64,000 nucleotides of DNA from Rhodospirillales bacterium (GTDB lineage Bacteria > Pseudomonadota > Alphaproteobacteria > Micavibrionales > Micavibrionaceae), in the NCBI GenBank assembly GCA_020638395.1, contig JACKIP010000009.1, positions 1,462 to 65,461 of the forward strand. Reading direction: 5' to 3'. Below are positions 3,202 through 55,632 of this stretch, in pieces. Under the pieces are notes generated by a model. It did not search any database. It had not been told where the DNA came from and worked only from the letters and a program-made list of their open reading frames with translations. The position numbers were made by a program, and so were the translations under genes. Position 1 is the stretch's first letter; each line of letters begins with the position of its first letter.

Positions 3202-3207
3202 ATTATT

Positions 3208-4270: not shown

Positions 4271-4333
4271 GATATGTAATCTCTGTATTTAAAAAATTAT
4301 ACGGTATTTATCCGGATAGTATATAAACTAAAT

Positions 4334-5080: not shown

Positions 5081-5096
5081 TGGATGAGGAGAGGTT

Positions 5097-5330: not shown

Positions 5331-5347
5331 AAAATCTGGATTCGTAC

Positions 5348-7009: not shown

Positions 7010-7013
7010 CCTC

Positions 7014-7988: not shown

Positions 7989-8048
7989 AGAAAATTTTTC
8001 TATGTCAAATGGAGGGGTGGGAGCGGTGAAGGGGATGTGGATCATGAT

Positions 8049-8804: not shown

Positions 8805-8888
8805 AATTCAATCTCCTTTTTATAAATCGGCTTTATAAGTGGTATTGGTATGTAAATATGGACAGTGTGCGTTCAAATCTTCATGTCT

Positions 8889-9128: not shown

Positions 9129-10043
9129 ATGTCATCAAAGAAAGTCACAGCTCGGCGTATTGACAAAATTTTAACGCAAATGCAGTACGCTTCTGATCGT
9201 CTTAAGCAGGGTGGGTTGAATACCACACTGAAAGCCGCTTTTTGGGAGGCAACTCAAGGATGTGAAGGGGAGCAATTTTTTGACTCCTTTTTCAAGTATG
9301 CATCCCCGATGTTGCAACAGCGTCTGACAATGGAAATGCCCCAAAAAGAGATGATACCAGAGCAGCGTCGCTTTATAGGTTATTATTTACATGATAAGCC
9401 TGAGTTATTAGAAGCCGTGAGAGCATATGAGGATGACGAACATGTCGATCTTTCAGAAGATCATGCCAGAGCTCTGGCTGAAGAGCTTACCGATCTTAAG
9501 AAAAAGGATGGCACGGGTTCATATGTTATTGTATCAGCGTTTAAGTCGGCTACAATTCAAAAAATGATGCCTTTTTTTCCCAAAGAAATGCAAGCGGAAA
9601 TCGGAAGTGATTTGGAACGTCTGAAAAAGACAGATGCTTACGTAGCTTTTTCTGATGCATTAACTCATGCATTTGGAGATCCTCTTGGCAAACAACAGCG
9701 GATTCTTGCATTGCTTCTCCTTTCTTCTAAGAAAGGCGAGCTGATGGTCAAAGGTGATGAACTTTTGCATCAACTGGCTGTGACAAGATATTTTGTAGAG
9801 GATATTGATAGTAATTTACGAAACCTATTAAGTGGGCAGGACTTATCCGAAGACCTTGAGCTTGCTCTTATGGATCTTGAGAGTATAAAAAAGGGGGTAT
9901 CGAAAGCGATCAAGATACTTTCTGATGAATATCAGATACCTGATGGCATTCTGCGCATAACAGCAGAAAAGGATGCGCAGTCTCCTAATGGAGGCTGTGA
10001 GCATTTGTACCGCCTCCCCGATGACTTTATGCCATCACGATAA
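9129..10043 (+). CDS. hypothetical protein (304 aa, acidic, no recognisable domain)
   Basis: Clean ORF with ATG start, AT-richer than neighbours, no signal peptide or TM; no family recognised. Confidence 0.4.
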   Translation: MSSKKVTARRIDKILTQMQYASDRLKQGGLNTTLKAAFWEATQGCEGEQFFDSFFKYASPMLQQRLTMEMPQKEMIPEQRRFIGYYLHDKPELLEAVRAYEDDEHVDLSEDHARALAEELTDLKKKDGTGSYVIVSAFKSATIQKMMPFFPKEMQAEIGSDLERLKKTDAYVAFSDALTHAFGDPLGKQQRILALLLLSSKKGELMVKGDELLHQLAVTRYFVEDIDSNLRNLLSGQDLSEDLELALMDLESIKKGVSKAIKILSDEYQIPDGILRITAEKDAQSPNGGCEHLYRLPDDFMPSR

Positions 10044-10084
10044 TCCATCCTCGACTTTTCCGGGGGGAGCCCCTAGAATAGCGC

Positions 10085-11455
10085 ATGGTCAAATCGTCTC
10101 GTCTTTCCTATGTGTGCCAGAATTGCGGTGCGGTGTCTTCCCGCTGGGCGGGCAAGTGCGATTCCTGCGGGGCATGGAACAGTTTGCTTGAAGAGGCCTC
10201 GGATGCGGTCGTTCCCAAAGGATTGAGCGTGGTCGGCAACGGCAAGGGGCGCGGCGGCAAACTTGAAATTCATGACCTGCAAAGCCAGAGCGAAATTTTG
10301 CCGCGGGAAAAAACCGGAATTGGCGAGCTGGACCGCGTCACCGGCGGCGGACTGGTGCGCGGCGCGGCGATGCTGATCGGCGGAGATCCGGGGATCGGGA
10401 AATCGACTCTGCTGCTACAGGCCGTGTGCGCGTTGGCCCGGCAGGGGAAGGCCTGCCTGTATGTCTCCGGCGAGGAGGCGGTCGATCAAATCCGCATGCG
10501 GGCGGGGCGGCTGGGGCTGGCGGATGTGAATATTGCGCTGGCGGCGTCTTCCAGCGTCCGCGATATTCTGAGTGCAATGGACGGGGCGATTGATCTGGTG
10601 GTCATTGATTCGATCCAGACCATGTTTGTCGATAATATTGATAGCGCCCCCGGAACGGTGACGCAGGTGCGGACGTCGGCTCTGGAATTGATCCGGACCG
10701 CCAAGAAAAAGAATATCATTCTGTTTCTGGTCGGGCATGTGACCAAGGACGGTCAGATTGCCGGTCCTCGCGTTCTGGAGCATATGGTGGATACGGTGTT
10801 ATATTTTGAAGGTGACCGCGGGCACCAGTTCCGGATTTTGCGCGCCGTTAAAAACCGTTTCGGCCCAACCGACGAAATCGGCGTGTTTGAAATGGCGGAG
10901 AAGGGGCTGGAAGAGGTTGCTAATCCGTCGGCGCTGTTTTTATCCCAGAAACAGGAAAATATTCCCGGAAATGCGGTCTTTGCCGGTATGGAAGGAACCC
11001 GCCCGGTTCTGGTCGAAGTGCAGGGACTTGCAGCCTCAACCGCTTATGGAACGCCGCGCCGCGCTGTGGTGGGTTGGGACTCCGGGCGGCTGGCGATGAT
11101 TTTGGCAGTGCTGGAGGCGCGGGTCGGGCTGAATTTTTCCGGCTATGATGTGTTTTTGAATATGGCCGGTGGCATTCGCGTATCCGAACCGGCGGCGGAT
11201 CTGGCGGTGGCGGCGGCCCTGATGAGCGCGCTGTCCAATAAAACATTTCCGGCAAATACGATCTTTTTTGGAGAGGTCGGGTTGAGCGGCGAGGTGCGTG
11301 CCGCTCCGCAAACCGATCTGCGTCTTAAGGAGGCAGAAAAGCTGGGATTTAAAATGGCGGTTCTTCCGCAGAATTCCAAAATTAAATCCTCCGGCGGGCT
11401 GCGGCTGGAAAAAGTCCGGCACGTGCAGGATCTGGCGGCATTGCTTGCGGTGTAA
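10085..11455 (+). CDS. radA: DNA repair protein RadA/Sms
   Basis: N-terminal zinc finger CQNCGAVSSRWAGKCDSCGAWNS, Walker A GGDPGIGKSTLLLQ, RadA-specific KNRFG motif (VKNRFGPTDEIGVFEM), Lon-like C-terminal domain. Confidence 0.9.
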   Translation: MVKSSRLSYVCQNCGAVSSRWAGKCDSCGAWNSLLEEASDAVVPKGLSVVGNGKGRGGKLEIHDLQSQSEILPREKTGIGELDRVTGGGLVRGAAMLIGGDPGIGKSTLLLQAVCALARQGKACLYVSGEEAVDQIRMRAGRLGLADVNIALAASSSVRDILSAMDGAIDLVVIDSIQTMFVDNIDSAPGTVTQVRTSALELIRTAKKKNIILFLVGHVTKDGQIAGPRVLEHMVDTVLYFEGDRGHQFRILRAVKNRFGPTDEIGVFEMAEKGLEEVANPSALFLSQKQENIPGNAVFAGMEGTRPVLVEVQGLAASTAYGTPRRAVVGWDSGRLAMILAVLEARVGLNFSGYDVFLNMAGGIRVSEPAADLAVAAALMSALSNKTFPANTIFFGEVGLSGEVRAAPQTDLRLKEAEKLGFKMAVLPQNSKIKSSGGLRLEKVRHVQDLAALLAV

Positions 11456-11499
11456 ATTGCCGTTTGGCAGGGGAATTAATTCCTGTAAACTTTCCCTGT

Positions 11500-13572
11500 A
11501 TGGTCATACGATTCACATTATTTGTTTTGTTCTGCTGTAGTGGAATTATGGCACAGGCGGCGGAGCCCCGGACTTTTTATGGTGTTCGCGGGCTGAATAC
11601 GGTTCCGGATGCGCGGGCGGACGAGACGGGGCGGGTTCATCTGACCCTCTCCCGCATGGGTCGCTATACGCACGGGATTTTGGGGGCGCAAATGAGCGAT
11701 CATGTCTATGTTGCTGTGCGCCAGAGTGCGGAGGCAGATCATTTGTTCGAAGAGCCGGAGCGTCTGTATCCCGGACTTGATACCAAACTTCAGTTGTGGG
11801 ATGAAACAGCGTTCCGTCCGGCGGCGGCGCTGGGGTTACAATCTGCTTTCGGGCATAAGCGCATGGCCGGGGAATATCTGGCCCTGTCGAAGCGCTGGAA
11901 TGAATTTGACGCAACGCTTGGCATGGGATGGGGGCGCTTCGGGCAGGCCGGACATTTCAAAAATCCGTTTGGCCTGATTTCTCATTTTGATAAAAACCGT
12001 CCGATGGAAGATGAAACGGCCAATGATCCCTCCGACTGGTTCACGGGAGAGCGGGTCGGAGTTTTTGCCGGACTATCCTATGAGCTGCCGGTGAAGGGAT
12101 TAGTTCTGACCGCGGACTGGAACGCGGACCGGTATCAGGCCGAGCGCGCCGCGACCGGAAATTTTCAGGCCCCGGCCCCGTGGAGTCTCGGGGTGCAATA
12201 TCAGCCTTCTGACTCTTTCAGTGCCGGGATCGGGGTGATGGGCGGAGATCAGGTCATGGGACGGATGACCCTGTCTCCCAATGTTGCGGACTGGCCCTGG
12301 CGGGCTGCTAAGAAGAGAGCTCTCCCACCTGTTACAACCGAGCGTCCGGCAGTCGGAAAAATCGAGGACATTTCGGTCGAGGCCCGCGATGATGGGCAGA
12401 TTCTTGAAATTGTCGCGGCGGACGGGGCTGTGCTGGACACCGTTTTGTCTGTGGAAGATTCTGTCTCTGCGCCGGCCCAGTACGGACGAGCGGTGCGCCA
12501 TATGATGCGGCAGGCCCCTCCGGAGGTCACAACTTTCCGGATTTTCCCGCATTTTGCCGGGTTGCAGGGGGCGCGGCTGAGCCTGATCCGTCGTGATCTG
12601 GAGCAGGCTTTGGGGGCTCATGCGGGGAGCGCGGACGAGATCTGGCAAAGCGCGGAGTTTGACCGTCATCTGGTCCGGCTGCCATATAAAGGAATAAATG
12701 CCCATAATCTGTGGCCGGATCATATTATCCTGCAGCAACAGGTGAGTCTGTCGGAGGAAGATCAGGGTGTGCTGTCCCGGACCGGATTGATTATAGAGGA
12801 GCAGCGGGCGGCATCAGGACCATGGGCGGTGGGGGGGGCGCTAAGGCTTAATCTGGGGGATAATCTGCAAAATCTGAATGCGGCCCGCGGGCGGCCTTTC
12901 CTTCCGGTGCGCAGCGATATTGATCTGTTTGCGCGGCAAACCGTCTCGCTTGACCGTATGTATTTGTCTTATCTGAAAACGCTCTGGCCGGATGTTCATG
13001 TCGGGGCGACGGTAGGGTATCTGGAGGAGCAATATGCCGGGGCGGGGGGCGAGCTTCTCTATCGTCCCTTTGGCAGAAACTGGGCGATTGGCGCGGAAGC
13101 ATGGGGGGTCTTTAAGCGGAACCCGCTGACAGCGTTTAATCAGGGAATTGGCGTCGATCATCTTCTGAGTGGTCATGTGCAGGGATGGTACCGACTGCCA
13201 CAACATCCGGAAACAACTGTGCATGTGCGGTTGGGACGCTATCTGGCAGAAGATCTTGGAGGCACTCTGGGGCTTGTGCACCGTTTTAAGAACGGGGCAA
13301 AGCTGGAGGGATTTGTTACCATGACCGATCAGAGTGATACGGATGTGTTCGGCGGAACAACCCACTTGCAGCACGGGGTGAAACTCTCTTTGCCGCTGGG
13401 AAGCCTGGATTATATTCCTGATAAAAGCCGGATGGATCTGGTAGTCGCTCCGTTTGGGAGAGACTCCGGGCAACATCTTGATAAACCTGTTTCTTTATAT
13501 GATCTGACCGAAGCTTTTTCTTTGCAGCATGTGGCGACGCATTGGGGTGATCTGGTTGGAGCAGAAAATTAG
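11500..13572 (+). CDS. YjbH/GfcD-family outer-membrane exopolysaccharide protein
   Basis: Signal peptide (FTLFVLFCCSGIMAQA/AEP); blocks matching E. coli YjbH: GMGWGRFGQAGHFKNPF, GGAGGELLYRPFGRNWAIGAEAWGV, GGTLGLVHRFKNGAKLEGFVTMTD; track start 11464 is TTG, ATG at 11500 used. Confidence 0.75.
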   Translation: MVIRFTLFVLFCCSGIMAQAAEPRTFYGVRGLNTVPDARADETGRVHLTLSRMGRYTHGILGAQMSDHVYVAVRQSAEADHLFEEPERLYPGLDTKLQLWDETAFRPAAALGLQSAFGHKRMAGEYLALSKRWNEFDATLGMGWGRFGQAGHFKNPFGLISHFDKNRPMEDETANDPSDWFTGERVGVFAGLSYELPVKGLVLTADWNADRYQAERAATGNFQAPAPWSLGVQYQPSDSFSAGIGVMGGDQVMGRMTLSPNVADWPWRAAKKRALPPVTTERPAVGKIEDISVEARDDGQILEIVAADGAVLDTVLSVEDSVSAPAQYGRAVRHMMRQAPPEVTTFRIFPHFAGLQGARLSLIRRDLEQALGAHAGSADEIWQSAEFDRHLVRLPYKGINAHNLWPDHIILQQQVSLSEEDQGVLSRTGLIIEEQRAASGPWAVGGALRLNLGDNLQNLNAARGRPFLPVRSDIDLFARQTVSLDRMYLSYLKTLWPDVHVGATVGYLEEQYAGAGGELLYRPFGRNWAIGAEAWGVFKRNPLTAFNQGIGVDHLLSGHVQGWYRLPQHPETTVHVRLGRYLAEDLGGTLGLVHRFKNGAKLEGFVTMTDQSDTDVFGGTTHLQHGVKLSLPLGSLDYIPDKSRMDLVVAPFGRDSGQHLDKPVSLYDLTEAFSLQHVATHWGDLVGAEN

Positions 13573-29447: not shown

Positions 29448-29451
29448 TTTT

Positions 29452-29838
29452 CGGAAGATCGGATGGCTGCGGGGCTTTTGTTGCGTGTGTTTTGGGACTA
29501 TTCCCGGAGCAGGCGGATCAAGGCTTCGAGGAAAGTCCGGGCATCATGGAAACACGGCGCCGGGGAAATCCCGGATGGAGTAATCCACTGGACAGGGCCA
29601 CAGAAAAAATGTAGCTGGGAAAACAACCCCCAGTCATAATGAAAAGGTGCGGTAAGAGCGCACCGCGCGACCGGTAACGGAAGCGGCATGGTAACCCCCG
29701 CCGGATGCAAGATCAAATAGGGGCCGCACATGATGCGTTTTCACATCGTGGCCCGGGTCGATCGCTTGACGAATCTGGTAACAGATTGCGCAGATGAATA
29801 GCCATCCCCGACAGAACCCGGCTTACAGGTCTTCCGAA
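29452..29838 (+). ncRNA. rnpB: RNase P RNA (type A)
   Basis: Universally conserved segments present in order: GGAAAGTCCGGGC, GGTAAGAGCGCACCGCGC, GGTAAC, CAAG..AAATAGGGG, AGATGAATAG, GACAGAACCCGGCTTA; P1 pairing cggaagatc (5') with gtcttccg (3'); no coding ORF. Confidence 0.85.
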
Positions 29839-29851
29839 AATTTTTTTCCTG

Positions 29852-40303: not shown

Positions 40304-41935
40304 TCAGGTAGATCCGTCGGATAGTTCCAGAGTTTTTTTCAGCATTGCAGTTACCTCTGTCGCCATGTGTTGCATCAGAGGTTTTGCGGCATTTTCAGGT
40401 TTTCTGACATCGCCGTTTGCATCATAGATTCCTTTTTCCAGATTCTCCCCGATTTTTGTATAGTTAACAGCCTGAAGGCCGTCGCGCCCCGTGCCATCAA
40501 AGATATAGGCGCTGTTCAGGCCAGCAATAACCTGCTGTGTTTGAGTCAGATCCGCCCCAAAGCGGTTTCCGACAAACCCGACGGCCTGTCCCATCCAGCT
40601 GCCGGGCCCACCGGGCATATTCCCCATGATGCCGCCGAGAAGTCCGTTTCCGGAGGTCCATTCCCCGCCATACATTCCCATAAAATGACCAAGAATGCCA
40701 TTCGGCCCTATCATCTCTGCCGAGCCGGTATCTCCCAGATTTTTAGCCCGGTCGATCAGGCTTTTCATCATCGGTCCCCCGAGAGCCAGTGCAGCAACAG
40801 GGGCGCTGCTTCCTGCAATCGCTGCGGCCATCCCGGCTTCGTGATGTACAGTATCTTCAATTGCGATATTTTTGAGCGTTGCCAGAGTCAGCGGCTCTGT
40901 CGTGGTGTTGGCGCGCTCGATAATACCGGTCATCAGCTGATCGCTGTTCAAAAGCGTCTCCGCTCCCTTGGAATTCGCATAGTCCGCAAATAGCTGAGAG
41001 GTGCGGTCAAGCGCTACGAATGGATTGCCTGAACTCGCGCTTCCATCTCCCGGTGTTGTAATCGAATTGGTAATCGCCGTGTTAATAACGGCTTCCAGTT
41101 GCGGGTGTTTTTCCAGCGCTGTGGCGAGTTTTTCCTGAAATCCTGCGATGGAGTCTCTGCTTGCGCCGCCCATATCCATCAGCATTCCGGCTTTTTCCTG
41201 CAGGCCGAAGCTTGAGACGATTCCGGCGACCCCTGCATTATCAAAAGATCCGCCTTTGTTGTTATGCTCCATCACTTTATTGATAACAGTTTCCGCGGCT
41301 CCCGATTGCGCAATGCGGAAAAAACTGTTTGGATTTGCAGCAATCGCCTGTAAAACAGGGGCATTCTCACGCAGGCGGTTGGTCAATCCTTCGATATTGG
41401 GAGTTTCATCACCACTCATACCGTTTTTGATCGTGCCGCCCACCAGTGTTTCCAGTCGATTCTGGACTCCTTCATTGTCTCTCAGGCGTTGCATAAAACT
41501 TCCGGTAGCATCTTTGTCAATTCCGGCAACCGAGAACGCCGTTTGCATGATGGTGGGCGCATCCATATGGGTTGCAAGTTTTGTAAAGAATGCTTTGGTA
41601 TCTCCACCATCCCGGAAAAAATCAGTTACGCTCGGCTCATTTTCGGCAAAAGACTTTTTCAGCTCCTGATAGTGTTTATGATCTTCAGACCCTTCCGGTG
41701 CGGTTCTCAATCTGGTCAGCGTTTCACCCATCGCCTGTTCCAGATCTTTCCCCATGCGACGTTCTGCCTCGTCTATGGCAACCCGGTTACTGACCCCCAG
41801 TGTGTCTCCTGTGGCGGCGACTGATAGTCTTTGAATTTCATCATCAAAAACGGTCTTGTTATGGTCATCGTTGCCCATAACGGAATTGATGATGCCTTCC
41901 AGCACAGTATGTTTATCTTCTACATCTTTGCTCAT
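40304..41935 (-). CDS. hypothetical soluble 543-aa protein (Gly/Met/Asn-rich), translationally coupled to the 133-aa ORF; candidate T4BSS-associated protein or substrate
   Basis: No TM or signal peptide, no recognisable domain; glycine-rich C-terminal third (GGIMGNMPGGPGSWMGQAVGFVGNRFG); start ATG overlaps the upstream stop as ATGA at 41932-41935; lies in the icmJ-icmB island. Confidence 0.5.
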   Translation of the reverse strand: MSKDVEDKHTVLEGIINSVMGNDDHNKTVFDDEIQRLSVAATGDTLGVSNRVAIDEAERRMGKDLEQAMGETLTRLRTAPEGSEDHKHYQELKKSFAENEPSVTDFFRDGGDTKAFFTKLATHMDAPTIMQTAFSVAGIDKDATGSFMQRLRDNEGVQNRLETLVGGTIKNGMSGDETPNIEGLTNRLRENAPVLQAIAANPNSFFRIAQSGAAETVINKVMEHNNKGGSFDNAGVAGIVSSFGLQEKAGMLMDMGGASRDSIAGFQEKLATALEKHPQLEAVINTAITNSITTPGDGSASSGNPFVALDRTSQLFADYANSKGAETLLNSDQLMTGIIERANTTTEPLTLATLKNIAIEDTVHHEAGMAAAIAGSSAPVAALALGGPMMKSLIDRAKNLGDTGSAEMIGPNGILGHFMGMYGGEWTSGNGLLGGIMGNMPGGPGSWMGQAVGFVGNRFGADLTQTQQVIAGLNSAYIFDGTGRDGLQAVNYTKIGENLEKGIYDANGDVRKPENAAKPLMQHMATEVTAMLKKTLELSDGST

Positions 41936-42333
41936 TTTGCACTCCCGTCTGTTATAGCCGTTATAAGAGGCTCTTCGGTTTCGTTAATTTTTCTGGTCGC
42001 AACGGATACAAGCATTGTTCCCTGTACTTCGTCATTTTCAACATGGGCAGTCATCATATATTCAGCATGCCGCCATTCTTCTGCCAGTTGTGGGGAGATG
42101 GGCAATCCCAGAGCAATACCCAACCCACCTTTACAAATAAAGGTTACTTCATTTTCATCCCCGTCATATTCTACCCACTGCAGTTCTGAGGGAAATGCTT
42201 TGTCATGAAACATCCAGATGAGCCCGTCCTTATGCAATATAAGGGCAATTTTCATCATCTCCGCCACAGTTTTTGGTTTTTTTGGCGCAGTCTCAACAGG
42301 GGCTAATTTGCGTGTTCGTCTCATTCTTCCCAA
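41932..42333 (-). CDS. hypothetical small acidic protein (133 aa); candidate chaperone/adaptor
   Basis: 133 aa, net acidic, no TM; ATGA overlap with the 543-aa gene; no family recognised. Confidence 0.45.
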   Translation of the reverse strand: MGRMRRTRKLAPVETAPKKPKTVAEMMKIALILHKDGLIWMFHDKAFPSELQWVEYDGDENEVTFICKGGLGIALGLPISPQLAEEWRHAEYMMTAHVENDEVQGTMLVSVATRKINETEEPLITAITDGSAK

Positions 42334-42367
42334 TCATACAGGATTTACTGGTTAAAAATCAAATTAA

Positions 42368-42922
42368 TCAGTTATCTCCGATCCATAATTCGTTCAGGGA
42401 AAGTCCTCTGGTTGAGCGGGGCAGGAGCAGATCAGGCGGGTTTCTCAGAATGGCCGGAATTCCTTTGTTAAAGCTTTCGAGAATTTCCGGATGGACTTTA
42501 TCTTTTGTGTCCAGGTCGCTGATAATTTTTCTGTCTTTTCGAGCCCGTGTGATTTCAAATGTGCCGCGGGCATACTCGCATTCGAACACGTTATAATTGA
42601 ATTGCCCTGCAGAGTCCTGATGGCTGACAAAAATGCGGATATTTGGCCCGTAATATTCAACATCCCGCACTTTCAAAGTTGTCGGAAAATCGATATATCG
42701 TTCGACAAAAACCTTGCAGATTCCATAGTGTATGGGACCCCAGCGCGGGCCATAAAAAACATAGGCGAGGAAGCCGGTAATTCCCAGAACGGCAAGAACG
42801 GCGAGTAGCACCAGAATCTTTACCGGACTCAGTTTCTTTTTGGCGGAGCGGTTCCCTTTTTTTGTCCCGTTTTTTTTGGGAGGATTCGCCTCCTGTGAAG
42901 ATATGCGGTTGGCTTTACTCAT
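42368..42922 (-). CDS. hypothetical bitopic membrane protein (basic N-terminus, one TM, periplasmic domain), coupled to icmB
   Basis: KKNGTKKGNRSAKKK then TM ILVLLAVLAVLGITGFLAYVFYG; start at 42922 overlaps icmB's last two codons (the longer track start 42961 would overlap by 47 nt); no family recognised. Confidence 0.5.
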   Translation of the reverse strand: MSKANRISSQEANPPKKNGTKKGNRSAKKKLSPVKILVLLAVLAVLGITGFLAYVFYGPRWGPIHYGICKVFVERYIDFPTTLKVRDVEYYGPNIRIFVSHQDSAGQFNYNVFECEYARGTFEITRARKDRKIISDLDTKDKVHPEILESFNKGIPAILRNPPDLLLPRSTRGLSLNELWIGDN

Positions 42923-45914
42923 GAATCTCTGATTTATCCAATTTTGATTTTGCGGCTTCAATCAATTCATTGACAATTTCGTTAATCACTTCGCTTTGTG
43001 CGCCTGATTTATCCATATCTCCTCCGCGCGCTTTTTCTGCCCGCATCAGGACGCGACGTTTGATCTCGGAGCGCGCGCTTCCTCCCGGAAAGTTGGCGGC
43101 CAGAAGTTGTCGGGCGGCTCCGGCTCCTAACGTATTATACAGCCGTGTCCGGATAGTAACGTCTTCGGAGGAAGTGGACATCGCCCATAACTCAATAGGG
43201 CCGAGTGTGTTAATCAAATGTTGTTCATAGCGCCCTTCATTGGTGGCCAGAACCAGCAGGCAGGGTGCGCCGGTCGAGCGCGGGCCGGTGAGGCGGTGGC
43301 GGATCACACTGCGGGCCGTGGCAGAAAGTCCAAACCGGGTCTGGATATTATCAACGGCCTGATCTGAAATTGCGGCCCCCATCACCCATATGCCGGTGGC
43401 CAGATCGATCATGTCGTCGTCAAAGTCTTCCAGAAGCTGGGAGGCCAGGACAATCTGAACGCCCCTTTTTCGCCCTTCGCGCACATCACGGATGACCTGC
43501 GAGCGCACAGATATTGATTTTCCGGTCCTGTGGAATTCATCATAGCACAGGCGTTTCGGCGTTTCTTTTGTATCCTGAAGCTTTAGCTCATGAAATGGAC
43601 GGTATTTCTCCGGGATATGAGCCAGAGATTCTTCTCCCATCCACCATCCCCGTACCAGAACATGACGGGCCAGCATATACATAATGGAGCTTTGGCGGTC
43701 GGCTGTTTCATCCCCTTGCGGGCAGACATCCATCAGATCAAGCGAGCAAATCCGGGCGTTGCTGACATCGAACTGGGTCACAGAAGACAGGATGGGATAT
43801 TCCCGGATGGCGGAGGTCACCATCCGTTCGAATGCAGAAATAACTGTTTCGGAACCGGAACCGACAGAGGTTTCTTCCATCAGTGTTCTGATCTGGGGGC
43901 GACGGGAGGCTGTAATCGTATCTCCCAGAGTAGGGACGGCGTGCCTTTGGGCCAGAACGGCAATATGATATTCCCCAAGATCATACATTTTCTCGACGAC
44001 ATCCCACCATAGAGGGTCTGCGGGCAAGTGAATGTTATGTTTTTGCAGGGCTTCATCAATTTCCGCATCGAGTCGCGGCAGGTAGGGCCGTGCTTCGGCA
44101 TTGGCGGAATTATCATCTCTCCAGCGATACATTTCATCGATCACAAAACCCGCCAGTTGCTGCATCCCGTCATAGGGGCGTTCATATCCGGGCGGGGTAC
44201 AAAGTAATGTCAGTAGTTCAATCAGATAGCTGCGCTCTTCGGGCAGGGGGTAGCGACATCCCAGTTGTGTATCAAATGGATTGATCGCGTATTTATGTGA
44301 CATTTGCAGCCTGAAATAGGCGGCTTCATGCGTTCTTCCGGGAGGAAGCGCTTCTTTAATCAGGGAAATCAGGCCTGAGGAAGAGGGGCCAATATCGACA
44401 ACAGCAATGAACGGAAGTTTACTCAGACCTGCCTGAAGGCAGGTGCCAAGATTGAGGGTGTTCATCATCACGGACTTACCAGCTCCCGGCTGCGCAAAAA
44501 TCAAATCAAACCATGTGGTTGTAAGGCTTGTGCCGGTTTGATAAGGCCATACCTTGCCATCCGGGGTTCTGAAGAGCATCGCTCCCTGAGTAAATGGGCT
44601 GGAGGGGCGCTGCCAGGGCAGCATTTTCATAATTTCATAGAGAGGGGCGATCGCGGTCGGTGCTGTTGAGGAGCAATGAAGGCCCATCGCTGAAGACATG
44701 ACACAGTCCAGAGGATCTCCGGAAAACTCGCTGGCCTGACAATAGCCCCAGCTTTCCAGTGACTGAACAATAACGGACAGCCGGTCCTGCATCAGTTTCA
44801 GATTATTCGCGGGAGCCCAGGTTGCAATGGTAATCCGCAGTTTTGCTACCGGTTCACTTCTGGCGACCCGCTGGAGACCTTCCAGAGAGTATTTGATTTG
44901 CTTGTTTACGGCATTTGTGACGCTGAGCATCGTTGCAACAGAGGCTTTCAGGGAGATGGCGGAGGCCCCGCCCCCTTCGATCAGGAAGGAAATACGGTGC
45001 GGCACTCCGGCCTCAACCAACCGGTTTAACAGGACCGGAAAGGCTGTGGCTTCCATAGGACCTAGAACCATATCTGCACCGCCGAATAACTGGTTTCCAA
45101 TTTTGACAATCGAGTCATCAACAACAAAGGCGTCTGCCGCTGCAAGCTGTTGTTTCAGGGATGGCCAGAGAATTTCTGATAAGTCTCCCCGGACGGTCGG
45201 CGCACGTGGACGGATGGGGTCTCCTGGCAGGCACGGACGCCAGTCTTCTCCGGCTCTTTCCGGAAACAGATTGTTTTTGACAGCAATCAAGGCATCGTGG
45301 GAGTCAAGTTTCAGAGCTTTGATGTCAAGTTCATCCAGCGCGGAAACGATCGCTGACACATAGCTCCTATGCCGGGTTCTCAGGGCATCGAGGGCGGCCA
45401 GCGGGTTTTGTGCATAGCCGGCGGCGACCCATTTTTTCTCTTTGGCCTCTTTGGCGGCTCTGGAAATTTCTGTTTTTGTCAGAACGGATGGGCGGGTCCA
45501 GAGGACGAAGTAAGATTCCTCGTAAGAAATGAATTTAGAAAGATGACGTTTCCTTTCTTCCAGCAGGTCCATTACGTCAAGATTCATGGCTTGTGCGGAC
45601 ATTCTGCTGGGGCGAAGCAGTACGTCCAGACTTTGTTCAACCCGTTCCTTGTCGCGAATAAAGAAAACCTGCAGGGCATGCCCGGCCCGGTCAAAACGGG
45701 CGCCGAGTTTCAATGTTGCGGATTCAATCAGGTGTTTATATTCGGCATCCCCGATAATCTGCCGGCTGCCTTCTATCTTCAGATACGTTAACAGAGAGCC
45801 GTCCGATGCAACCAGCGTGGATTCATCATCGGCCGTTTCCAGACGAACATAGGATTCTATGTTCTTTTTCAGTGTCGTTTCAAACGGCGCGAGGAGTTTA
45901 TTCAGAAAATTCAT
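42915..45914 (-). CDS. icmB: type IVB secretion system ATPase IcmB/DotO (TraU of IncI plasmids), VirB4-like
   Basis: 999 aa (family ~1000 aa); N-terminal ESYVRLETADDESTLVASDGSLLTYLKIEG resembles the IcmB/TraU N-terminus; central Walker A FAQPGAGKSVMMNTLNLG; immediately preceded by an IcmJ/DotN homolog as in Legionella region II and R64 traT-traU. Confidence 0.85.
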   Translation of the reverse strand: MNFLNKLLAPFETTLKKNIESYVRLETADDESTLVASDGSLLTYLKIEGSRQIIGDAEYKHLIESATLKLGARFDRAGHALQVFFIRDKERVEQSLDVLLRPSRMSAQAMNLDVMDLLEERKRHLSKFISYEESYFVLWTRPSVLTKTEISRAAKEAKEKKWVAAGYAQNPLAALDALRTRHRSYVSAIVSALDELDIKALKLDSHDALIAVKNNLFPERAGEDWRPCLPGDPIRPRAPTVRGDLSEILWPSLKQQLAAADAFVVDDSIVKIGNQLFGGADMVLGPMEATAFPVLLNRLVEAGVPHRISFLIEGGGASAISLKASVATMLSVTNAVNKQIKYSLEGLQRVARSEPVAKLRITIATWAPANNLKLMQDRLSVIVQSLESWGYCQASEFSGDPLDCVMSSAMGLHCSSTAPTAIAPLYEIMKMLPWQRPSSPFTQGAMLFRTPDGKVWPYQTGTSLTTTWFDLIFAQPGAGKSVMMNTLNLGTCLQAGLSKLPFIAVVDIGPSSSGLISLIKEALPPGRTHEAAYFRLQMSHKYAINPFDTQLGCRYPLPEERSYLIELLTLLCTPPGYERPYDGMQQLAGFVIDEMYRWRDDNSANAEARPYLPRLDAEIDEALQKHNIHLPADPLWWDVVEKMYDLGEYHIAVLAQRHAVPTLGDTITASRRPQIRTLMEETSVGSGSETVISAFERMVTSAIREYPILSSVTQFDVSNARICSLDLMDVCPQGDETADRQSSIMYMLARHVLVRGWWMGEESLAHIPEKYRPFHELKLQDTKETPKRLCYDEFHRTGKSISVRSQVIRDVREGRKRGVQIVLASQLLEDFDDDMIDLATGIWVMGAAISDQAVDNIQTRFGLSATARSVIRHRLTGPRSTGAPCLLVLATNEGRYEQHLINTLGPIELWAMSTSSEDVTIRTRLYNTLGAGAARQLLAANFPGGSARSEIKRRVLMRAEKARGGDMDKSGAQSEVINEIVNELIEAAKSKLDKSEIHE

Positions 45915-46013
45915 GGTTTTGGGCTATGCGAGACGATTTTTTAATATCATATCGACTTTTTTTCGAAAGTCTAAGCGTTTATTTTTGCGATATTTCATTT
46001 GTCACAGCTTCGC

Positions 46014-46670
46014 TCAGGCCGCTTCCGGCAGAAGCATGTCTTTGTAGCGCGGCAGCCACTCCAGCGGCGGGTGTCCGGCAAAGGGTCCCTGTTTTGAGCG
46101 CCAATAGGCGAGAATCTGTGGAAATTGATTAAATTCGAGCCCGCTTTCCCTGATTTTGCGGCGATCCAGAGGAAACAGACGTACGCCGTCCAGCTTTTCA
46201 TTCCGTCTTTCATAGGCCTGTTTGGTTAGGAAATCCGTGAGGACGGTTGCCAGAACAAAAGGATCGTCCGTCCCCAGTCTATTCCTTGCATCGTTCCGTC
46301 GTTCCATAATGACTTCCAGCATGGATTTTGCCGTCTCGGACATAACCCCTTGCGATATACGTGCGATATAGATGGAGCGGGCGAGGTTATTAAGGTCTGG
46401 CTGGCTGATCTCTGGCATCCATATCAGAACTCCTGAGCCCATCGGGGCAACATCTTCGAGATGGAAGCACTGGTGGCAGAACATGCAGGTTGTGACCATA
46501 TTCGCGAGGGTCTGGTTATTGGGATTTCCGTCCAGATGGTGGATCAGCTGGTACTTTTCAGCCCGGAACTGGCAGTAGTGACAGCTATGGTCATCACGTT
46601 TTAGAACCTGATTGATAACGTCTGTCGGAAGCGGTTTTTGTGCTTTATATCGTGATACACTAAGTTGCAT
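46014..46670 (-). CDS. icmJ: type IVB secretion system protein IcmJ/DotN
   Basis: 218 aa; Cys-rich motifs DDHSCHYCQF...LDGNPNNQTLANMVTTCMFCHQCFHLE...GSGVLIWMPEISQPDLNNLARSIY match from memory the IcmJ/DotN pattern (RYTCQFCGF...LDGDYTNN...LVTACCFCAQCF...GGGTLIYLPELTQAELNSL); adjacent to and co-oriented with icmB. Confidence 0.85.
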   Translation of the reverse strand: MQLSVSRYKAQKPLPTDVINQVLKRDDHSCHYCQFRAEKYQLIHHLDGNPNNQTLANMVTTCMFCHQCFHLEDVAPMGSGVLIWMPEISQPDLNNLARSIYIARISQGVMSETAKSMLEVIMERRNDARNRLGTDDPFVLATVLTDFLTKQAYERRNEKLDGVRLFPLDRRKIRESGLEFNQFPQILAYWRSKQGPFAGHPPLEWLPRYKDMLLPEAA

Positions 46671-46685
46671 GTTCCCTCTTCTTTT

Positions 46686-48056
46686 TTAGCTGAATGTTAG
46701 TCCTGGCAATCCCGCGATCGGTCCCAAAGTGGACTGAACTGCTGTCAGGAAAGGGCCGAGGTTAACAAGAATTGTGCCGCCGAGCAAGTGAGTTATGGCT
46801 GACATCATAGAGGCCTGTTGTGCGCCTTCGGCAACGGATCTGAAAATAAACAGGCCGCGCACAAAGCTGATCCAGCCGAGGATAAGCATGTAGGCTAAAA
46901 CCGCACTAATAAAATTCTCCAGCCGATCTTCATAGGCAGTAAGACCGCCACCGGGGATGGTTAGGTCAACTTTTGTTTCTGCGGTGCTGTCACCAAACAA
47001 AGTCGTCGCGAATGCCCCCATGGTTGGTCCCAGAGCCAGTAAGGCGGCGCCAGTTATGAATGTCATGATCGTTCCGATTCCTCCGGGACCGCGTGGGCCA
47101 TCCTGCATGGTTTTCATCAATCTGAATACACCCATGATAATCAGGACCATTCCCGCCATATAACTGAACCCTGCCAGCACGAATTTGATAATACCGTGGA
47201 TATTAAAGACAAAGTTCGAGACGACCAGATCAAGGCTTTGAGCGTTACCTTCGCCTCCGCCTATCGCTGCGCCATTGTGCAGGTTGAAGTCTGTCGTCGT
47301 CTGTGTGCCCATGCCTCCCAGCAGAGTTCTGGCTGCAACATCCAGCGACCAAGGCAAAACCAGCAGCAATGTGGCAACAACGTAGCGCTGAAACGGGACC
47401 CAGAGAGATACTTGCCCCGGATTTTCAACACTTTGCTTCAAACTAATTGTTGCAAAATACATCAGGGTCAGGCCCGCGATATAAGAAAAGCCGCTGAGCA
47501 ATCCGGGAATATTCGAGATGTGATCCCACATATTACAGAAAATACCGGAAATCATTCCCGCGAACTGAGCATTCAGACAAGCTGAGCCTGGGTCGGCGAT
47601 TGTTGTGACAACACCGTTCAGGGTTATATATATTTTTCCGGAAGCACCGCCTGCAGAAAAGAAACTCATGCCGCCCCAAGTCTTAACGTTGCCTCCCATT
47701 GCCGTTGTAATCAGGGTTTCATACAGAACGGGCAGGGCCAGCAGAAGTCCGCAGACAACAAACTCGATGATCGGGGTGCGGATCGGCATTTCTCTGGGGC
47801 CGGCCGTTGTGTGTTTGACCATATCCAGAACAGCTTTAACTCCAAGAGCCAGACCGCTCAGATAGGCGGCGATAGACACCAGTCCAGGAAGAAAATAGGA
47901 ATTGGTCAGCAGATTATCGGTAATACAGTTGACGTCATCGCCTGTAGCACAGGTCGCGACTACTCCTCCAGCGTATGCACGCTCTGCCAGAAAAAATATC
48001 AGGAGGCCGAGTGTCGCAGAAAGGCTGTAAAATCTGTTTTTTAAGGTCATAATCAA
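46686..48056 (-). CDS. polytopic inner-membrane protein (456 aa, signal peptide, ~10 TM) in the IcmC/IcmD position; putative T4BSS membrane component
   Basis: Signal peptide ending ERAYA/GG, many TM helices with Gly-rich loops; sits where the small membrane proteins IcmC/DotE and IcmD/DotP lie relative to icmJ-icmB, but is far larger; no direct similarity recognised. Confidence 0.5.
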   Translation of the reverse strand: MIMTLKNRFYSLSATLGLLIFFLAERAYAGGVVATCATGDDVNCITDNLLTNSYFLPGLVSIAAYLSGLALGVKAVLDMVKHTTAGPREMPIRTPIIEFVVCGLLLALPVLYETLITTAMGGNVKTWGGMSFFSAGGASGKIYITLNGVVTTIADPGSACLNAQFAGMISGIFCNMWDHISNIPGLLSGFSYIAGLTLMYFATISLKQSVENPGQVSLWVPFQRYVVATLLLVLPWSLDVAARTLLGGMGTQTTTDFNLHNGAAIGGGEGNAQSLDLVVSNFVFNIHGIIKFVLAGFSYMAGMVLIIMGVFRLMKTMQDGPRGPGGIGTIMTFITGAALLALGPTMGAFATTLFGDSTAETKVDLTIPGGGLTAYEDRLENFISAVLAYMLILGWISFVRGLFIFRSVAEGAQQASMMSAITHLLGGTILVNLGPFLTAVQSTLGPIAGLPGLTFS

Positions 48057-48142: not shown

Positions 48143-48955
48143 TTATTGAACTCGTGTGAGGTGCATGAGGAGGGTTCCGTAGTCGGTTTTTACCTGAATC
48201 TTAACCGGGATCGCATATTCGAATCCCTCAACTTTAGCCATCCAGACCGATGGAAGAGCCCCTTTTTGGCGGCCCTGCTCCTGTATCAGAAGCCATCCGC
48301 GGGGTTTTTTGTGCCAGTGACCGCCTTTGGGTTCAATTTCAATTTCGCACAGACGGGCCGGTCCAGAAAAAATATTATAGCGGGATTTATCCAGTGTTTT
48401 TTGCCCTTTATCCTTGAAATACATGGCAAAACGGCGGCGGCCATCGTAGATATCAGAGGCTCCTTCGCACTTTTGGGTCGCTATCAGATTTTTCATGACC
48501 TCCAGAGTGGCGGAGAGCAGGTCGGTAGTTCCATCTGTCAAAACCGGATCTATGTCGGGGGTTTCGGTCGGGGAGCCGTCTTCTTTGATGGTTAAGGACT
48601 TCAACTTATTATTTTGATATAAAAAGGTTTTTGTCTCGGTTTTTCCGCGCCAGATCGAAGTGGTCTCGTGTTTCGTCGGCGAAAAAGCATCCGGGGTTAC
48701 CGCGCCAACCGTTTGAAAAATACCGGACCAGGGTACCAGAGATTCCAGCCATCCGCGTGTTTTCGCAGCGACCGCGGCGTTATAAGTGTTCCGTTGCACA
48801 TCGAAATTGAATTTTGCCTGCACCGCGTGAATGCCGCCGGCATAGACTTCATAGGTAAACTCCCGCGTTTCTGCGGCGGCGGGCGCGGAAAAGAGCAATG
48901 ATGAAAGGATGATAATCCTAGGAATAAAGGCCTGAATATATAACTGTCTCTCCAC
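48143..48955 (-). CDS. DUF3108-like secreted protein
   Basis: Signal peptide RIIILSSLLFSAPAAA, then YEVYAGGIHAVQAKFNF pattern; probable GTG start at 48955 (AAGGAG 7 nt upstream) reduces overlap with the upstream gene to ~38 nt. Confidence 0.5.
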   Translation of the reverse strand: MERQLYIQAFIPRIIILSSLLFSAPAAAETREFTYEVYAGGIHAVQAKFNFDVQRNTYNAAVAAKTRGWLESLVPWSGIFQTVGAVTPDAFSPTKHETTSIWRGKTETKTFLYQNNKLKSLTIKEDGSPTETPDIDPVLTDGTTDLLSATLEVMKNLIATQKCEGASDIYDGRRRFAMYFKDKGQKTLDKSRYNIFSGPARLCEIEIEPKGGHWHKKPRGWLLIQEQGRQKGALPSVWMAKVEGFEYAIPVKIQVKTDYGTLLMHLTRVQ

Positions 48956-49865
48956 CCATTCTCTCCTTAAAGTGTTGAATATCTCTTGCATCATACGCAT
49001 TCACTCCGCCTAAATCAAAGTCTTTTATCCCGGTTTCTTTTAATGTAAGCAGGGTGCGCCACAAAAGAAAGTGATTGGCGCAGAGCGGGCGTCCTTCGGG
49101 GGATAGATATCCAATCTGGTAGGTCGCGGAGGTGCCGTGGCGCAAAACCAGTGCGGACGCTACGACGTTCCCGTGATGCACGGCATGGGCCAGAAGAAGT
49201 GATTGCTGCTCTGCAAAGATGGGAATATAGTCATAAAGGCGCGCCGGAGGGATGTTTTTATAGGCCTTTTCCTTTATATCCTGTTGATATAATTTGATAA
49301 AATCTGCGGCCGTGTCGCCGGCAGTGTCATGGATCACGGTCAAATCGTACCGCTCTGATTTGCTCAATTGGTTCCGCCATTTCGGATGCAGAGATTTGCG
49401 CAAGTCCTCTGCGTCTTTGGTTAAGTCCAGCCAGATCGTGGTATAGCGGGATTCTTTTTGCCAAATAAACCCGTTTTGTTCAATAAAATCAGACGATTTT
49501 TGCGTGAAAGCGATATTGGGGATAAAACGCCGCTTGCGACCGATTCGTTTTGGGAAGCAGAGATTAAACGCTTTGGTAAAAGCATCATTCTTGCGATCAA
49601 GATCTGTGGGGTCATACCAGAGCGGCCCCATATCCAGAATAACCGCGTGCAGCAGGCCGTGCAGGGTGGATGCTTCGGCGATCTGAACAATTCCGGCTTC
49701 CTGATCGTCCAGGTAAATCGCGCCCCACCGCGGTTTTTGTCCCAGTCTGGGGCAGGTGGCCCGCGCATGGGCGTATGATTGCAGCAGGGTTGAGCGGCGG
49801 ACTTTTTCAAACCGCTCCTGCCATTCCGGCAACGTGAAGTCCTTCCATTCGATCCGACAATTCAT
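48918..49865 (-). CDS. FemAB-like / GNAT-fold aminoacyltransferase family protein (COG2348-like)
   Basis: Two-lobed GNAT-like layout; C-terminal lobe HAVHHGNVVASALVLRHGTSATYQIGYLSPEGRPLCANHFLLWRTL typical of FemAB-type peptidyl/aminoacyl transferases; assignment by pattern only. Confidence 0.45.
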   Translation of the reverse strand: MNCRIEWKDFTLPEWQERFEKVRRSTLLQSYAHARATCPRLGQKPRWGAIYLDDQEAGIVQIAEASTLHGLLHAVILDMGPLWYDPTDLDRKNDAFTKAFNLCFPKRIGRKRRFIPNIAFTQKSSDFIEQNGFIWQKESRYTTIWLDLTKDAEDLRKSLHPKWRNQLSKSERYDLTVIHDTAGDTAADFIKLYQQDIKEKAYKNIPPARLYDYIPIFAEQQSLLLAHAVHHGNVVASALVLRHGTSATYQIGYLSPEGRPLCANHFLLWRTLLTLKETGIKDFDLGGVNAYDARDIQHFKERMGGETVIYSGLYS

Positions 49866-53331: not shown

Positions 53332-53407
53332 TGGTGGAGCCGAGCGGAATCGAACCGCCGACCTCTACAATGCCATTGTAGCGCTCTACCAATTGAGCTA
53401 CGGCCCC
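53332..53407 (-). tRNA. tRNA-Ala (anticodon GGC), CCA encoded
   Basis: Reverse complement GGGGCCGTAGCTCAATTGGTAGAGCGCTACAATGGCATTGTAGAGGTCGGCGGTTCGATTCCGCTCGGCTCCACCA folds as a cloverleaf; G3:U70 Ala identity pair; anticodon loop CTACA-AT-GGC-AT-TGTAG; the 65-aa ORF 53252-53449 over it is spurious. Confidence 0.85.
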
Positions 53408-54366: not shown

Positions 54367-55632
54367 TTAACGGATCAGAGTTACATCTGGAATTTCTATG
54401 TCACGGTTTGCAACGTTGTCACAATTATTGCCAATGGATGGATTACCGGCAATTGTGATGGTCTTTGCAATCAGGATCGTGCAGGGGTCCGCGCCACCGG
54501 CAAATCCTGCATCGCCACCGAACCATAGGCCTTGAGAGGGAAAATACAGCACGCCTTCGATATTGATCCCGCTGGTACCCACGATTTTATTCTGAAGATT
54601 CTTTGCAGAGGGGGCATTCCGATCCTGAAAGAACGCAACACCTTCGAAGTCATCTCCTTCTTTCGGCGGGGTCAGATTTATCTGACGGCTGCCTGAAATG
54701 TCGACCTGTGCGTAATCATTTCCTTCGCCGGTCAGAATAATACTGACTTCTTCGCCGCTGAGCGTTCCGCCTCCGGTTACTTTCAAGGATCCTCCGAAGA
54801 TAATATAAACGCCGGGCTCAAAGACGATGTCATTATTTCCGGAAATTGAGATACCTCCACAATAAAGTCCGGGACTCAGAGTCGTGTCACTGTTTACCGT
54901 CAGGGCTTTTGCCTTTTTAGGGCATTCTGCGTGTGCCGGGACCTCCAGATCTTCATAGGGGTCATCAATCGGGGCTTTGTTTGTTTTCAGGCTGTTATAC
55001 TGAAAATCGGCAGCGCCGCCGGTCACATCGTAATAACCAGATATCCTGACATTATTTACAAGCACGTCCACATTCCCGGAGAGGGTAAAGGCTTGGTCGC
55101 TGCTGGAATTGACCGCGATTCCGCAACTGGGGGCAGAGAGGTCCACCGAACCGAATGAGGTAAAGGCATCGTCTGCGCTGCGGTCCAGAGATAAGAAGCA
55201 AAAATTCCCGTCAACGCCGTCTACTCGGGCTTCGGCATAGGCGGAAATCCTTTTTTTATCTGTAAAGAAGCGGGAGAATAAGGCTTCACTGTCTTCCGAG
55301 ACGGTCAATCCAATGGTATAGCTGCCATCCTCTTCTTCGGTGAGAATTGCTAAAGTAAGGTTGCCATTTGCGTCGGGGTTATAGCCGTTCGCCATTGCCT
55401 CTTTTTCGGCGGCATAGTCCATATAGTCATTACTTTTGGTGGCCAGCTCCCATCCGGCGGCGATAACACCAGCATCTGCTGCCGTTTGCAGATCCTGCTT
55501 CTTGGCCATCCAGACGCTGGCATCGACCCCCAGGCCGGCCACGCCGATAATGACAGGGAATGCAAGCGCGGCCATAACGGCAACGCTGCCGAGTGTTTGT
55601 CTATAGAAGCGGTTGAATATGTTCTTTTCCAT
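54367..55632 (-). CDS. TadG-like Flp-pilus assembly protein (large pseudopilin)
   Basis: N-terminal GSVAVMAALAFPVIIGVAGLGVDASVWMAKKQDLQTAADAGVIAAG typical of the TadG family; long beta-rich Gly/Ser/Asn-rich C-terminal region. Confidence 0.7.
   Translation of the reverse strand: MEKNIFNRFYRQTLGSVAVMAALAFPVIIGVAGLGVDASVWMAKKQDLQTAADAGVIAAGWELATKSNDYMDYAAEKEAMANGYNPDANGNLTLAILTEEEDGSYTIGLTVSEDSEALFSRFFTDKKRISAYAEARVDGVDGNFCFLSLDRSADDAFTSFGSVDLSAPSCGIAVNSSSDQAFTLSGNVDVLVNNVRISGYYDVTGGAADFQYNSLKTNKAPIDDPYEDLEVPAHAECPKKAKALTVNSDTTLSPGLYCGGISISGNNDIVFEPGVYIIFGGSLKVTGGGTLSGEEVSIILTGEGNDYAQVDISGSRQINLTPPKEGDDFEGVAFFQDRNAPSAKNLQNKIVGTSGINIEGVLYFPSQGLWFGGDAGFAGGADPCTILIAKTITIAGNPSIGNNCDNVANRDIEIPDVTLIR

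Follow-up and report, generated by a model that had tools for sequence, protein, structure and literature searches.

An icmJ–icmB gene block of the Micavibrio Dot/Icm-type secretion locus, split from its usual neighbors in two clades

Six genes around icmJ and icmB

In a 64-kb stretch of DNA from an uncultured Rhodospirillales bacterium of the Micavibrionaceae (GenBank assembly GCA_020638395.1, contig JACKIP010000009.1; this whole stretch of 64,000 nucleotides is hereafter the window), a minus-strand block at positions 40304–48056 carries icmJ and icmB of a Dot/Icm-type, or type IVB, secretion system (T4BSS) together with four further genes. The original prediction, made from the sequence alone, had called this block an isolated T4BSS fragment, and the six tightly packed open reading frames (ORFs) that it had delimited were all found, intact, with spacings along the block of 15, 99, −8, 43 and −4 bp and then 88 bp before secD. 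In order, these are p456 (46686–48056; 456 amino acids, aa), a polytopic inner-membrane protein placed by sequence in the IcmC/IcmD (DotE/DotP; TraQ/TraR) family; IcmJ/DotN (46014–46670; 218 aa), the zinc-binding subunit of the type IV coupling-protein complex; IcmB/DotO/TraU (42915–45914; 999 aa), the VirB4-class ATPase of type IVB systems; p197 (ORF 42368–42961, 197 aa; 184 aa in GenBank, from the ATG at 42922), which is bitopic; p133 (ORF 41932–42333, 133 aa; 130 aa in GenBank, 41932–42324), a small acidic cytoplasmic protein; and p543 (40304–41935; 543 aa), which is acidic, soluble and clade-restricted. GenBank names IcmB, labels IcmJ ‘HNH endonuclease’ and calls the other four ‘hypothetical’. 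A promoter and terminator scan of the block gave no clear operon boundaries.

The assignments of IcmJ and IcmB held on sequence search. IcmJ passes the NCBIfam model IcmJ_DotN_IVB (NF038221; 105.3 bits against a cut-off of 100) and matches the solved Legionella DotN (PDB 5x1h; E 1.4e-22) with the Cys motifs aligned. It also matches the NCBIfam model guided_IscB (E 5.8e-6), and this similarity to an IscB/HNH-like zinc finger is probably what lies behind the mislabeling of the DotN homolog (MCB9964139.1) as an HNH endonuclease. For IcmB, Pfam and NCBIfam gave weak VirB4/TraC/TraG matches and hold no dedicated model, and a profile search of the PDB found no related chain (no DotO chain appears to be deposited); the assignment was therefore tested against annotated IncI1 TraU, to which IcmB is 26% identical over ~90% of the length (tblastn, E ~1e-68) and which retrieves it from the window by phmmer at 2e-89. 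The Walker A (GAGKS, aa 477–481) and Walker B (DEFH, aa 792–795) motifs are invariant in 20 homologs, and both NCBI and JGI name the 999-aa protein IcmB. The block holds an IcmB-type ATPase with intact Walker motifs and, adjoining it, the DotN (TraT) counterpart.

Upstream of icmJ, p456 combines a signal-peptide-like N-terminus and hydrophobic segments with four tandem IcmD-like units (aa 1–124, 166–253, 271–364 and 387–445). Other Micavibrio genomes encode this unit as a stand-alone 132-aa protein with a signal peptide and two hydrophobic helices, and a hidden Markov model (HMM) of the stand-alone unit finds the p456 repeats at E 2e-17, 4e-14 and 2e-6, the fourth (E 1.8) not being significant; by the same HMM, proteins of the p456 family consist of three to six tandem IcmD-like repeats. 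The NCBIfam model TraQ_IncI1 matches the last two repeats of p456 (aa 280–445, E 1.7e-6) and 26 of the 56 family members (best E 6.8e-16), and no direct match to IcmD/TraR models was obtained for the family. In canonical loci the family lies after icmG and before icmJ, and the separate 132-aa gene is absent from the window clade. Judged by sequence, p456 is a concatenation of IcmD-like and IcmC-like units at the exact icmC–icmD position, which places both the IcmC/DotE and the IcmD/DotP (TraQ/TraR) type of polytopic protein upstream of IcmJ. Copy number of the unit is highly plastic: stand-alone copies occur two or three in tandem at L082 (7404–8941) and also at L015, L065, L070 and L073, and p456-family proteins of other genomes fuse up to six units.

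Downstream of icmB, whose stop codon it overlaps by 8 nt, p197 has a basic cytoplasmic tail, one transmembrane (TM) helix, and a periplasmic alpha+beta domain with two invariant Cys, and it belongs to an order-wide, T4BSS-linked family. It shares a bitopic N-in topology and a periplasmic NTF2-like domain with VirB8, DotI (IcmL) and TraM, but no sequence or profile similarity to these three proteins was detectable. It stands in the TraV position but has no similarity to TraV, and comparisons of p197, p133 and the 132-aa IcmD-like unit with IncI1 TraV, TraR, TraQ, TraK, TraL, TraX and TraS (hmmsearch, hhalign) gave nothing significant. Coupled translationally to icmB, p197 may anchor or position DotO in the manner of DotI/DotJ and IcmT in Legionella, where DotO receptors have been described (PMC11474061).

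The next gene, p133, is conserved across part of the order, with homologs in 16–21 loci. An ORF of the same orientation follows it at a distance of −4 to +49 bp in 13 of 14 loci, and these partner ORFs differ between lineages in both sequence and length (79–1003 aa). In the window the partner is p543, whose start overlaps the p133 stop (ATGA). No Pfam or NCBIfam family matches p133, and a search of the PDB with a profile built from 15 homologs gave no chain, solved IcmS/IcmW/LvgA-type adaptors included; its single-sequence AlphaFold2 model (predicted local distance difference test score, pLDDT, of 51) is too poor for fold comparison. Likewise, p543 matches no Pfam or NCBIfam model and showed no eukaryote-like domains. 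It has six homologous clusters in all among 1.84 billion representatives; alignments among homologs of 458, 810 and 1003 aa are offset, pointing to internal repeats, the pI is 4–5 and TM segments are absent, and ~400-aa proteins in the same position elsewhere are unrelated to p543 by profile (hhalign probability 1.6%). In L004 (13987–15844) a frameshift or an assembly error divides the p543 homolog between two ORFs, of 458 and 171 aa. Most likely, p133 and its hypervariable partner, here p543, are an adaptor or chaperone and a lineage-specific secreted substrate, a proposal that draws on the size and charge of p133 and on the arrangement of a conserved small protein beside a variable one. Because p133 is conserved and its partners are interchangeable, this fits better than a cognate immunity–toxin pair; a strict toxin–immunity relationship was rejected since p133 is conserved across unrelated partners, and p543 was also rejected as an IcmX, having no signal peptide and no similarity to it. 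Four genes of the block had been left unrecognized at the outset: p456 and p197 can now be placed, the first in the TraQ/IcmC–IcmD group and the second in an order-wide family, whereas p133 and p543 are still without a family match.

The block is flanked by secD, secF and glmM on one side and by DUF3108, FemAB-like and truA genes on the other, its GC resembles that of its surroundings, and Pfam and NCBIfam scans show the rest of the window to be housekeeping in character (priA, glpX, radA-like, ffh, exopolysaccharide (EPS) export genes, a sucB-type E2, purQ, an aconitase-family protein, RNase P RNA, glmM, secDF, truA, NAD-GDH and trmD). Within the 64 kb, IncI1 Tra/Trb queries found TraU as the sole match, Micavibrio-specific profiles of IcmL, IcmK, IcmE and IcmG found none, and blastp against all ORFs of the loci described below revealed no further Dot/Icm gene, in agreement with the isolation that had been claimed. 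DotC, DotD, DotH/IcmK, DotG/IcmE, DotF/IcmG, DotB, DotL/IcmO and DotM/IcmP are not in the window and were all seen in relatives.

Order-wide conservation and the break between icmG and icmC

To a reader of the window alone, a T4BSS had seemed unexpected in this lineage. By scanning one genome per GTDB species, we found IcmB relatives in 272 species genomes, and the best 80 of these 272 are all Micavibrio-like (67–84% identity), coming from Micavibrio or unclassified alphaproteobacterial (‘Pseudobdellovibrionaceae’) metagenome-assembled genomes (MAGs). The flanks are housekeeping genes in all loci examined (ubiH, glnB, mltA, tim44-like, rnpA, yidC), and the system is an ordinary possession of the lineage. 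Synteny was compared over 81 loci by tblastn and ORF clustering: icmJ-icmB-p197 is present in nearly all of them, and the usual layout is icmL-icmK-icmE-icmG-icmC-icmD-icmJ-icmB-p197, often followed by p133 and a variable ORF. This canonical gene order is that of Legionella region II and of R64 traM–traU. In a Micavibrio aeruginosavorus MAG chromosome, IcmL/DotI scores 202.7 bits (cut-off 175), DotH/IcmK 265 bits and DotG/IcmE 158 bits, with a weak match for IcmG/DotF, and the contiguous locus is also present in the cultured M. aeruginosavorus EPB (CP003538.1).

Further components lie in a second gene group. About 9 kb upstream of icmL, the EPB genome encodes DotB (TIGR02524, 270 bits on a 233-aa fragment versus 166 for the plasmid TraJ model), IcmT/TraK (95 bits versus a cut-off of 40) and a 475-aa TcpQ-domain protein, after which come flgL, flgK and then two paralogs of ~400–450 aa with weak TraW matches. 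A metagenome scan anchored on DotB (147 relatives, clustered together with IncI1 references) placed DotB in 41 loci and revealed a conserved run consisting of a 138-aa protein, DotD, DotC, DotB, IcmT and the TcpQ protein. DotC was found in 37 loci (E 5e-38), and a 171-aa lipoprotein is DotD by its match to the Legionella cryo-EM structure 6x62 (E 6e-30). On a single contig, L150, the run extends into IcmP/DotM (E 1.7e-11) and IcmO/DotL (E 1.9e-56). In all, 14 canonical components were detected across the order, these last two from that contig alone, and IcmS, IcmW, IcmQ, IcmR, IcmF and IcmH were not detected in the Micavibrio loci examined.

In the window clade (L001–L004; IcmB 83–100% identical) and in a marine lineage (P0009; IcmB 77% identical), the locus reads DUF3108-p456-icmJ-icmB with no icmLKEG within 10 kb, and upstream of p456 both split clades carry DUF3108, a FemAB-like acyltransferase, a K+ channel and truA. 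One step further out, lineage P0012 (IcmB 73%) has a contiguous locus and is essentially the cultured M. aeruginosavorus, its IcmK being 99% identical to the annotated DotH/IcmK of the 2,458,610-bp EPB genome. Two divergent clades (77–84% IcmB identity) share the split, which has therefore long been retained. Locus L089 (GCA_020638175.1, JACKJA010000002.1) shows the complementary half at 9246–13456, icmL-K-E-G followed by asd and a hybrid histidine kinase, and linkage at the icmG/icmC junction has therefore been broken in more than one lineage. Of the two readings first proposed for the fragment, a split or minimal T4BSS with its remaining parts elsewhere and a decaying or rearranged module, the first is the best supported in its split form; a minimal system is contradicted by the fuller set in relatives. 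The secDF neighborhood is confined to the closest relatives, and this adjacency has no evident functional meaning. Immediately upstream of p456, the DUF3108 and FemAB-like genes of the split clades overlap each other (window 48143–49865); the pair also occurs no more than 10 kb from icmB in two lineages that are unrelated (L033, 17596–19300; L051, 20681–22300), which could reflect coincidence or a loose association.

Selection on the fragment was assessed from divergence between the window and L003 and L004, for which synonymous sites are saturated (pS ~0.8). Nonsynonymous divergence (dN) is 0.11 for icmB, 0.18–0.20 for icmJ, 0.31–0.33 for p456, 0.33–0.36 for p197, 0.50 for p133 and 0.7–0.9 for p543, as against 0.20 for secF, 0.22–0.26 for truA and 0.24–0.25 for secD. 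The most constrained gene of the neighborhood is icmB, and its slower evolution relative to the adjoining secD, secF and truA therefore indicates strong constraint. Three assemblies, and likewise the relatives L003, L004 and L084, carry all six ORFs uninterrupted, but for the split p543 homolog of L004. The fragment is under purifying selection, and the decaying module that the original prediction had also considered does not agree with dN values of icmB and icmJ that are as low as or below those of secD, secF and truA. A horizontal island was rejected as well, the GC and flanks being native and the system order-wide.

Several further features of these loci were observed. The T4BSS genes of M. 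aeruginosavorus and many relatives are interleaved with a flagellar operon, the hook-associated genes flgL and flgK (L088, 2773–6107) lying between the dotB–icmT and icmL–icmB groups. Between flgK and icmL, on the opposite strand, stand two to six paralogs of ~400–500 aa (up to 740 aa in L091) whose copy number varies (L088, the EPB locus, 6276–8833; L089, 1739–8815; L090, 1690–8818; L091, 1982–8907). Two members match the NCBIfam model TraW weakly (E 2e-6 and 0.011) and a third does not; they could be IcmX/TraW-like components or substrates. Neither these paralogs nor a 349-aa family upstream of dotD matched any PDB chain. The conserved 138-aa protein before dotD (L092–L157, ~1.4–2.0 kb upstream of dotB) has a signal peptide and, from its sequence, may be a small TrbN-type lytic transglycosylase; upstream of it are a weakly TrbB-like 290-aa protein and an unassigned 383-aa family. 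The dotD group starts with a 420-aa family that, from motifs in its consensus, may be a FIST-type sensor. In L077 (4500–9900) and L078 (7600–9600), icmJ and icmB are separated by an opposite-strand insertion of 2–5 kb; among the genes inserted in L077 are a 1104-aa ORF and a 382-aa ORF with RHS/YD-repeat-like sequence, hinting at a polymorphic-toxin cassette.

Elsewhere in the window, a class A RNase P RNA (29451–29841, 282.6 bits) and a tRNA-Ala(GGC) (53332–53407) are both ordinary. A low-GC patch at 3000–7000 (0.40–0.42 versus ~0.52 elsewhere) encodes a methyltransferase, an acyltransferase fragment and a HAD-like protein and is possibly a surface-polysaccharide islet. A tadG-like pilin gene (54367–55632) is intact in the window and is interrupted in two sister assemblies by rve-type and DDE_Tnp_1-type transposases (L172, 2767–3896, and L173, 3097–4065; contigs of GCA_020638415.1 and GCA_020638435.1, which carry the insertion sequences). 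The proteins of the block are identical in these two assemblies, each having three accessions, and the window probably represents a third assembly of nearly the same sequence.

Explanations for the isolated fragment

The six genes are most probably the intact end of an order-wide Micavibrio Dot/Icm T4BSS, split here from the rest of the system, which would be located elsewhere. A rearrangement would have cut the locus between icmG and icmC in the window clade and its marine sister clade, so that the fused four-repeat icmC/D, icmJ, icmB, p197, p133 and p543 now follow the DUF3108/FemAB-like genes. At the channel's cytoplasmic base, IcmB/DotO would make up the VirB4-class ATPase assembly, with the IcmC/D protein and p197 as putative inner-membrane partners, and DotN would join the DotL–DotM coupling complex, which selects substrates. 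We infer that the channel, the outer-membrane core, DotB and the coupling protein are supplied from elsewhere in the window genome. The likeliest use of such a system would be contact-dependent protein delivery into prey bacteria during epibiotic predation, because it is chromosomal, relaxase-less where seen and nearer to Dot/Icm models, and because it belongs to a predatory order and has a precedent in Pseudomonas putida. More specifically, and only tentatively, the T4BSS may be the predation apparatus of Micavibrio, with p133 as an adaptor for fast-evolving substrates and with p197 and the IcmC/D protein adapted to bacterium-to-bacterium delivery; we regard this fuller proposal as possible but doubtful.

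A number of results weigh against a split but working, prey-directed system. The predatory habit of the window organism, an uncultured MAG, is presumed from that of its relatives, and p543 has no recognizable toxin domain or secretion signal. The TraQ match of p456 is below the curated cut-off (28 versus 80 bits), IcmO and IcmP are clear in a single metagenome contig (L150), and a single-sequence phmmer search with TraY (DotA) gave no match in the window or in the ~10-kb loci around icmB, icmK and dotB, DotA being poorly conserved. No remaining T4BSS gene was found in the 10 kb past the window edge, and the IcmK of the window clade is missing among the best 120 matches to M. aeruginosavorus IcmK. 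These last two results, like the absence of any other Dot/Icm gene from the 64 kb and the broken p543 homolog of L004 (458 and 171 aa), would equally suit a decaying or orphaned remnant whose partners have been lost, or a fragment that has been re-purposed. Such a fate is very unlikely for genes that are intact in three assemblies and in L003, L004 and L084, with icmB at the neighborhood minimum (dN 0.11 at saturated dS), its Walker motifs invariant, and the split kept in two clades as divergent as 77–84% in IcmB. To our knowledge, moreover, a VirB4-class ATPase, DotN and IcmC/D have no known function without a channel, which also counts against a remnant.

If the split system is complete and active, its target could be eukaryotic rather than bacterial, or its cargo DNA rather than protein. 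All classical Dot/Icm systems act on eukaryotic cells, eukaryotic hosts being the targets in Legionella, Coxiella and the choanoflagellate associate ‘Comchoano’; the best models for DotB, IcmL and IcmJ are Dot/Icm equivalogs and not plasmid ones, the window organism is uncultured, and some MAG lineages resembling Micavibrio may be protist-associated. The survey that noted type IV secretion in Micavibrionales placed them with host-associated lineages (PMC9418006). Aim at protist hosts is nonetheless unlikely, since the cultured carrier M. aeruginosavorus EPB is an obligate epibiotic predator of bacteria (PMC3189940), a bacteria-killing T4BSS is established in P. putida (PMC9519443) and no eukaryote-like domains were seen in p543. 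A chromosomal IncI-like mating apparatus (MPF_I) for DNA transfer, which might for example mobilize those Micavibrio integrative elements that have mob genes but lack a transfer apparatus, would account for the homology of components to R64 TraM, TraN, TraO, TraQ, TraT, TraU, TraH, TraI, TraJ and TraK, and M. aeruginosavorus does carry nine putative integrative and conjugative elements with integrases and mobA/L and no recognized type IV system (PMC3189940). It is quite improbable, as no relaxase, integrase or oriT-type genes stand beside the loci, whose flanks are housekeeping, and as the system is inherited across 272 species under strong constraint, unlike typical mobile mating modules. General scans of the window ORFs and the Pfam labels of neighbors showed no relaxase-type domain (whole genomes were not searched), Dot/Icm models outscore plasmid ones (DotB 270 versus TraJ 166 bits; DotG 158 versus TraO 90 bits), and the MacSyFinder class reported for Micavibrionales is the relaxase-less pT4SSi (PMC9418006).

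Relation to known systems and significance

Compared with the Dot/Icm systems of Legionella pneumophila and Coxiella burnetii, canonical Micavibrio loci have the same icmL-K-E-G-C-D-J-B order as region II, share IcmL, IcmK, IcmE, IcmG, IcmC/D, IcmJ, IcmB, DotD-DotC-DotB and IcmT (and, in one contig, IcmP and IcmO), pass the Dot/Icm-specific curated models for IcmJ, IcmL and IcmT, and show no relaxase in the regions seen. They differ in their host, an alphaproteobacterial predator of bacteria and not a gammaproteobacterial intracellular parasite, in the concatenation of IcmC/IcmD units into three to six repeats, in the extra bitopic NTF2/VirB8-like protein after icmB, in the two to six TraW-like paralogs and flgK/flgL between the gene groups, in that IcmS, IcmW, IcmQ, IcmR, IcmF, IcmH and DotA were undetected, and, in the window clade, in the split itself. 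The IncI1 R64 transfer genes (traH-I-J-K and traM-N-O-P-Q-R-S-T-U-V) show a parallel order, traQ-traR-traT-traU corresponding to p456-(IcmD unit)-icmJ-icmB, with TraQ matched by profile and TraU, TraT, TraM, TraN, TraO, TraI and TraJ directly by sequence; the Micavibrio system differs in being chromosomal and vertically inherited, and in the regions seen it lacks a relaxase, a nic region and pil or shufflon genes. A Methylorubrum extorquens AM1 megaplasmid, the closest plasmid match (45% identity), was considered as a reference and dropped, as it holds none of the Micavibrio-specific families; its neighborhood looks conjugative (RecD2/relaxase-like helicase, topoisomerase, TrbC).

The functional precedent for a prey-directed T4BSS is the kib system of P. 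putida IsoF, a Dot/Icm-type system of a free-living host that acts on bacteria by contact; hypothetical genes are numerous in it, and its effector shares a transcript with a small gene (PMC9519443). A few strains carry kib, on a rare and recently acquired 70-kb genomic island, whereas the Micavibrio system is ancient and belongs to the core of the whole order, its genes dispersed among housekeeping ones. In Micavibrio, moreover, p133 is conserved while its partner varies, for which an adaptor would be a better fit than a cognate immunity protein.

The system is of a known kind and in this lineage had been noticed only by automated surveys. Needham et al. (2022) reported pT4SSi in seven marine Micavibrionales in one sentence, from MacSyFinder criteria of virB4/icmB plus at least six accessory genes without a relaxase (PMC9418006). 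This is the system described here, and that sentence gives no gene-level description, split, IcmC/D repeats, p197, p133–partner module or link to predation. The M. aeruginosavorus genome paper of 2011 saw no evidence of a type IV system and looked to type I and II secretion and hemolysins for predation (PMC3189940). In the full-text literature we found no other paper linking Micavibrio to IcmB or a T4BSS, so that the original suggestion of an undescribed system stands in part: the survey and the IcmB and IcmK labels at NCBI and JGI precede it, and no paper found characterizes the system.

For annotation, DotN replaces ‘HNH endonuclease’, and an IcmC/D repeat protein, a VirB8-like IcmB partner and a small substrate partner receive candidate assignments. 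The split also illustrates how what looks like a stray piece of a multi-gene machine may come about simply because operon linkage has been broken in one lineage. Micavibrio attacks and consumes its prey from the outside, and a conserved Dot/Icm machine offers a concrete, testable candidate for the apparatus of that predation. If this is true, bacteria-targeting T4BSSs would extend from one Pseudomonas island to a whole predatory order.

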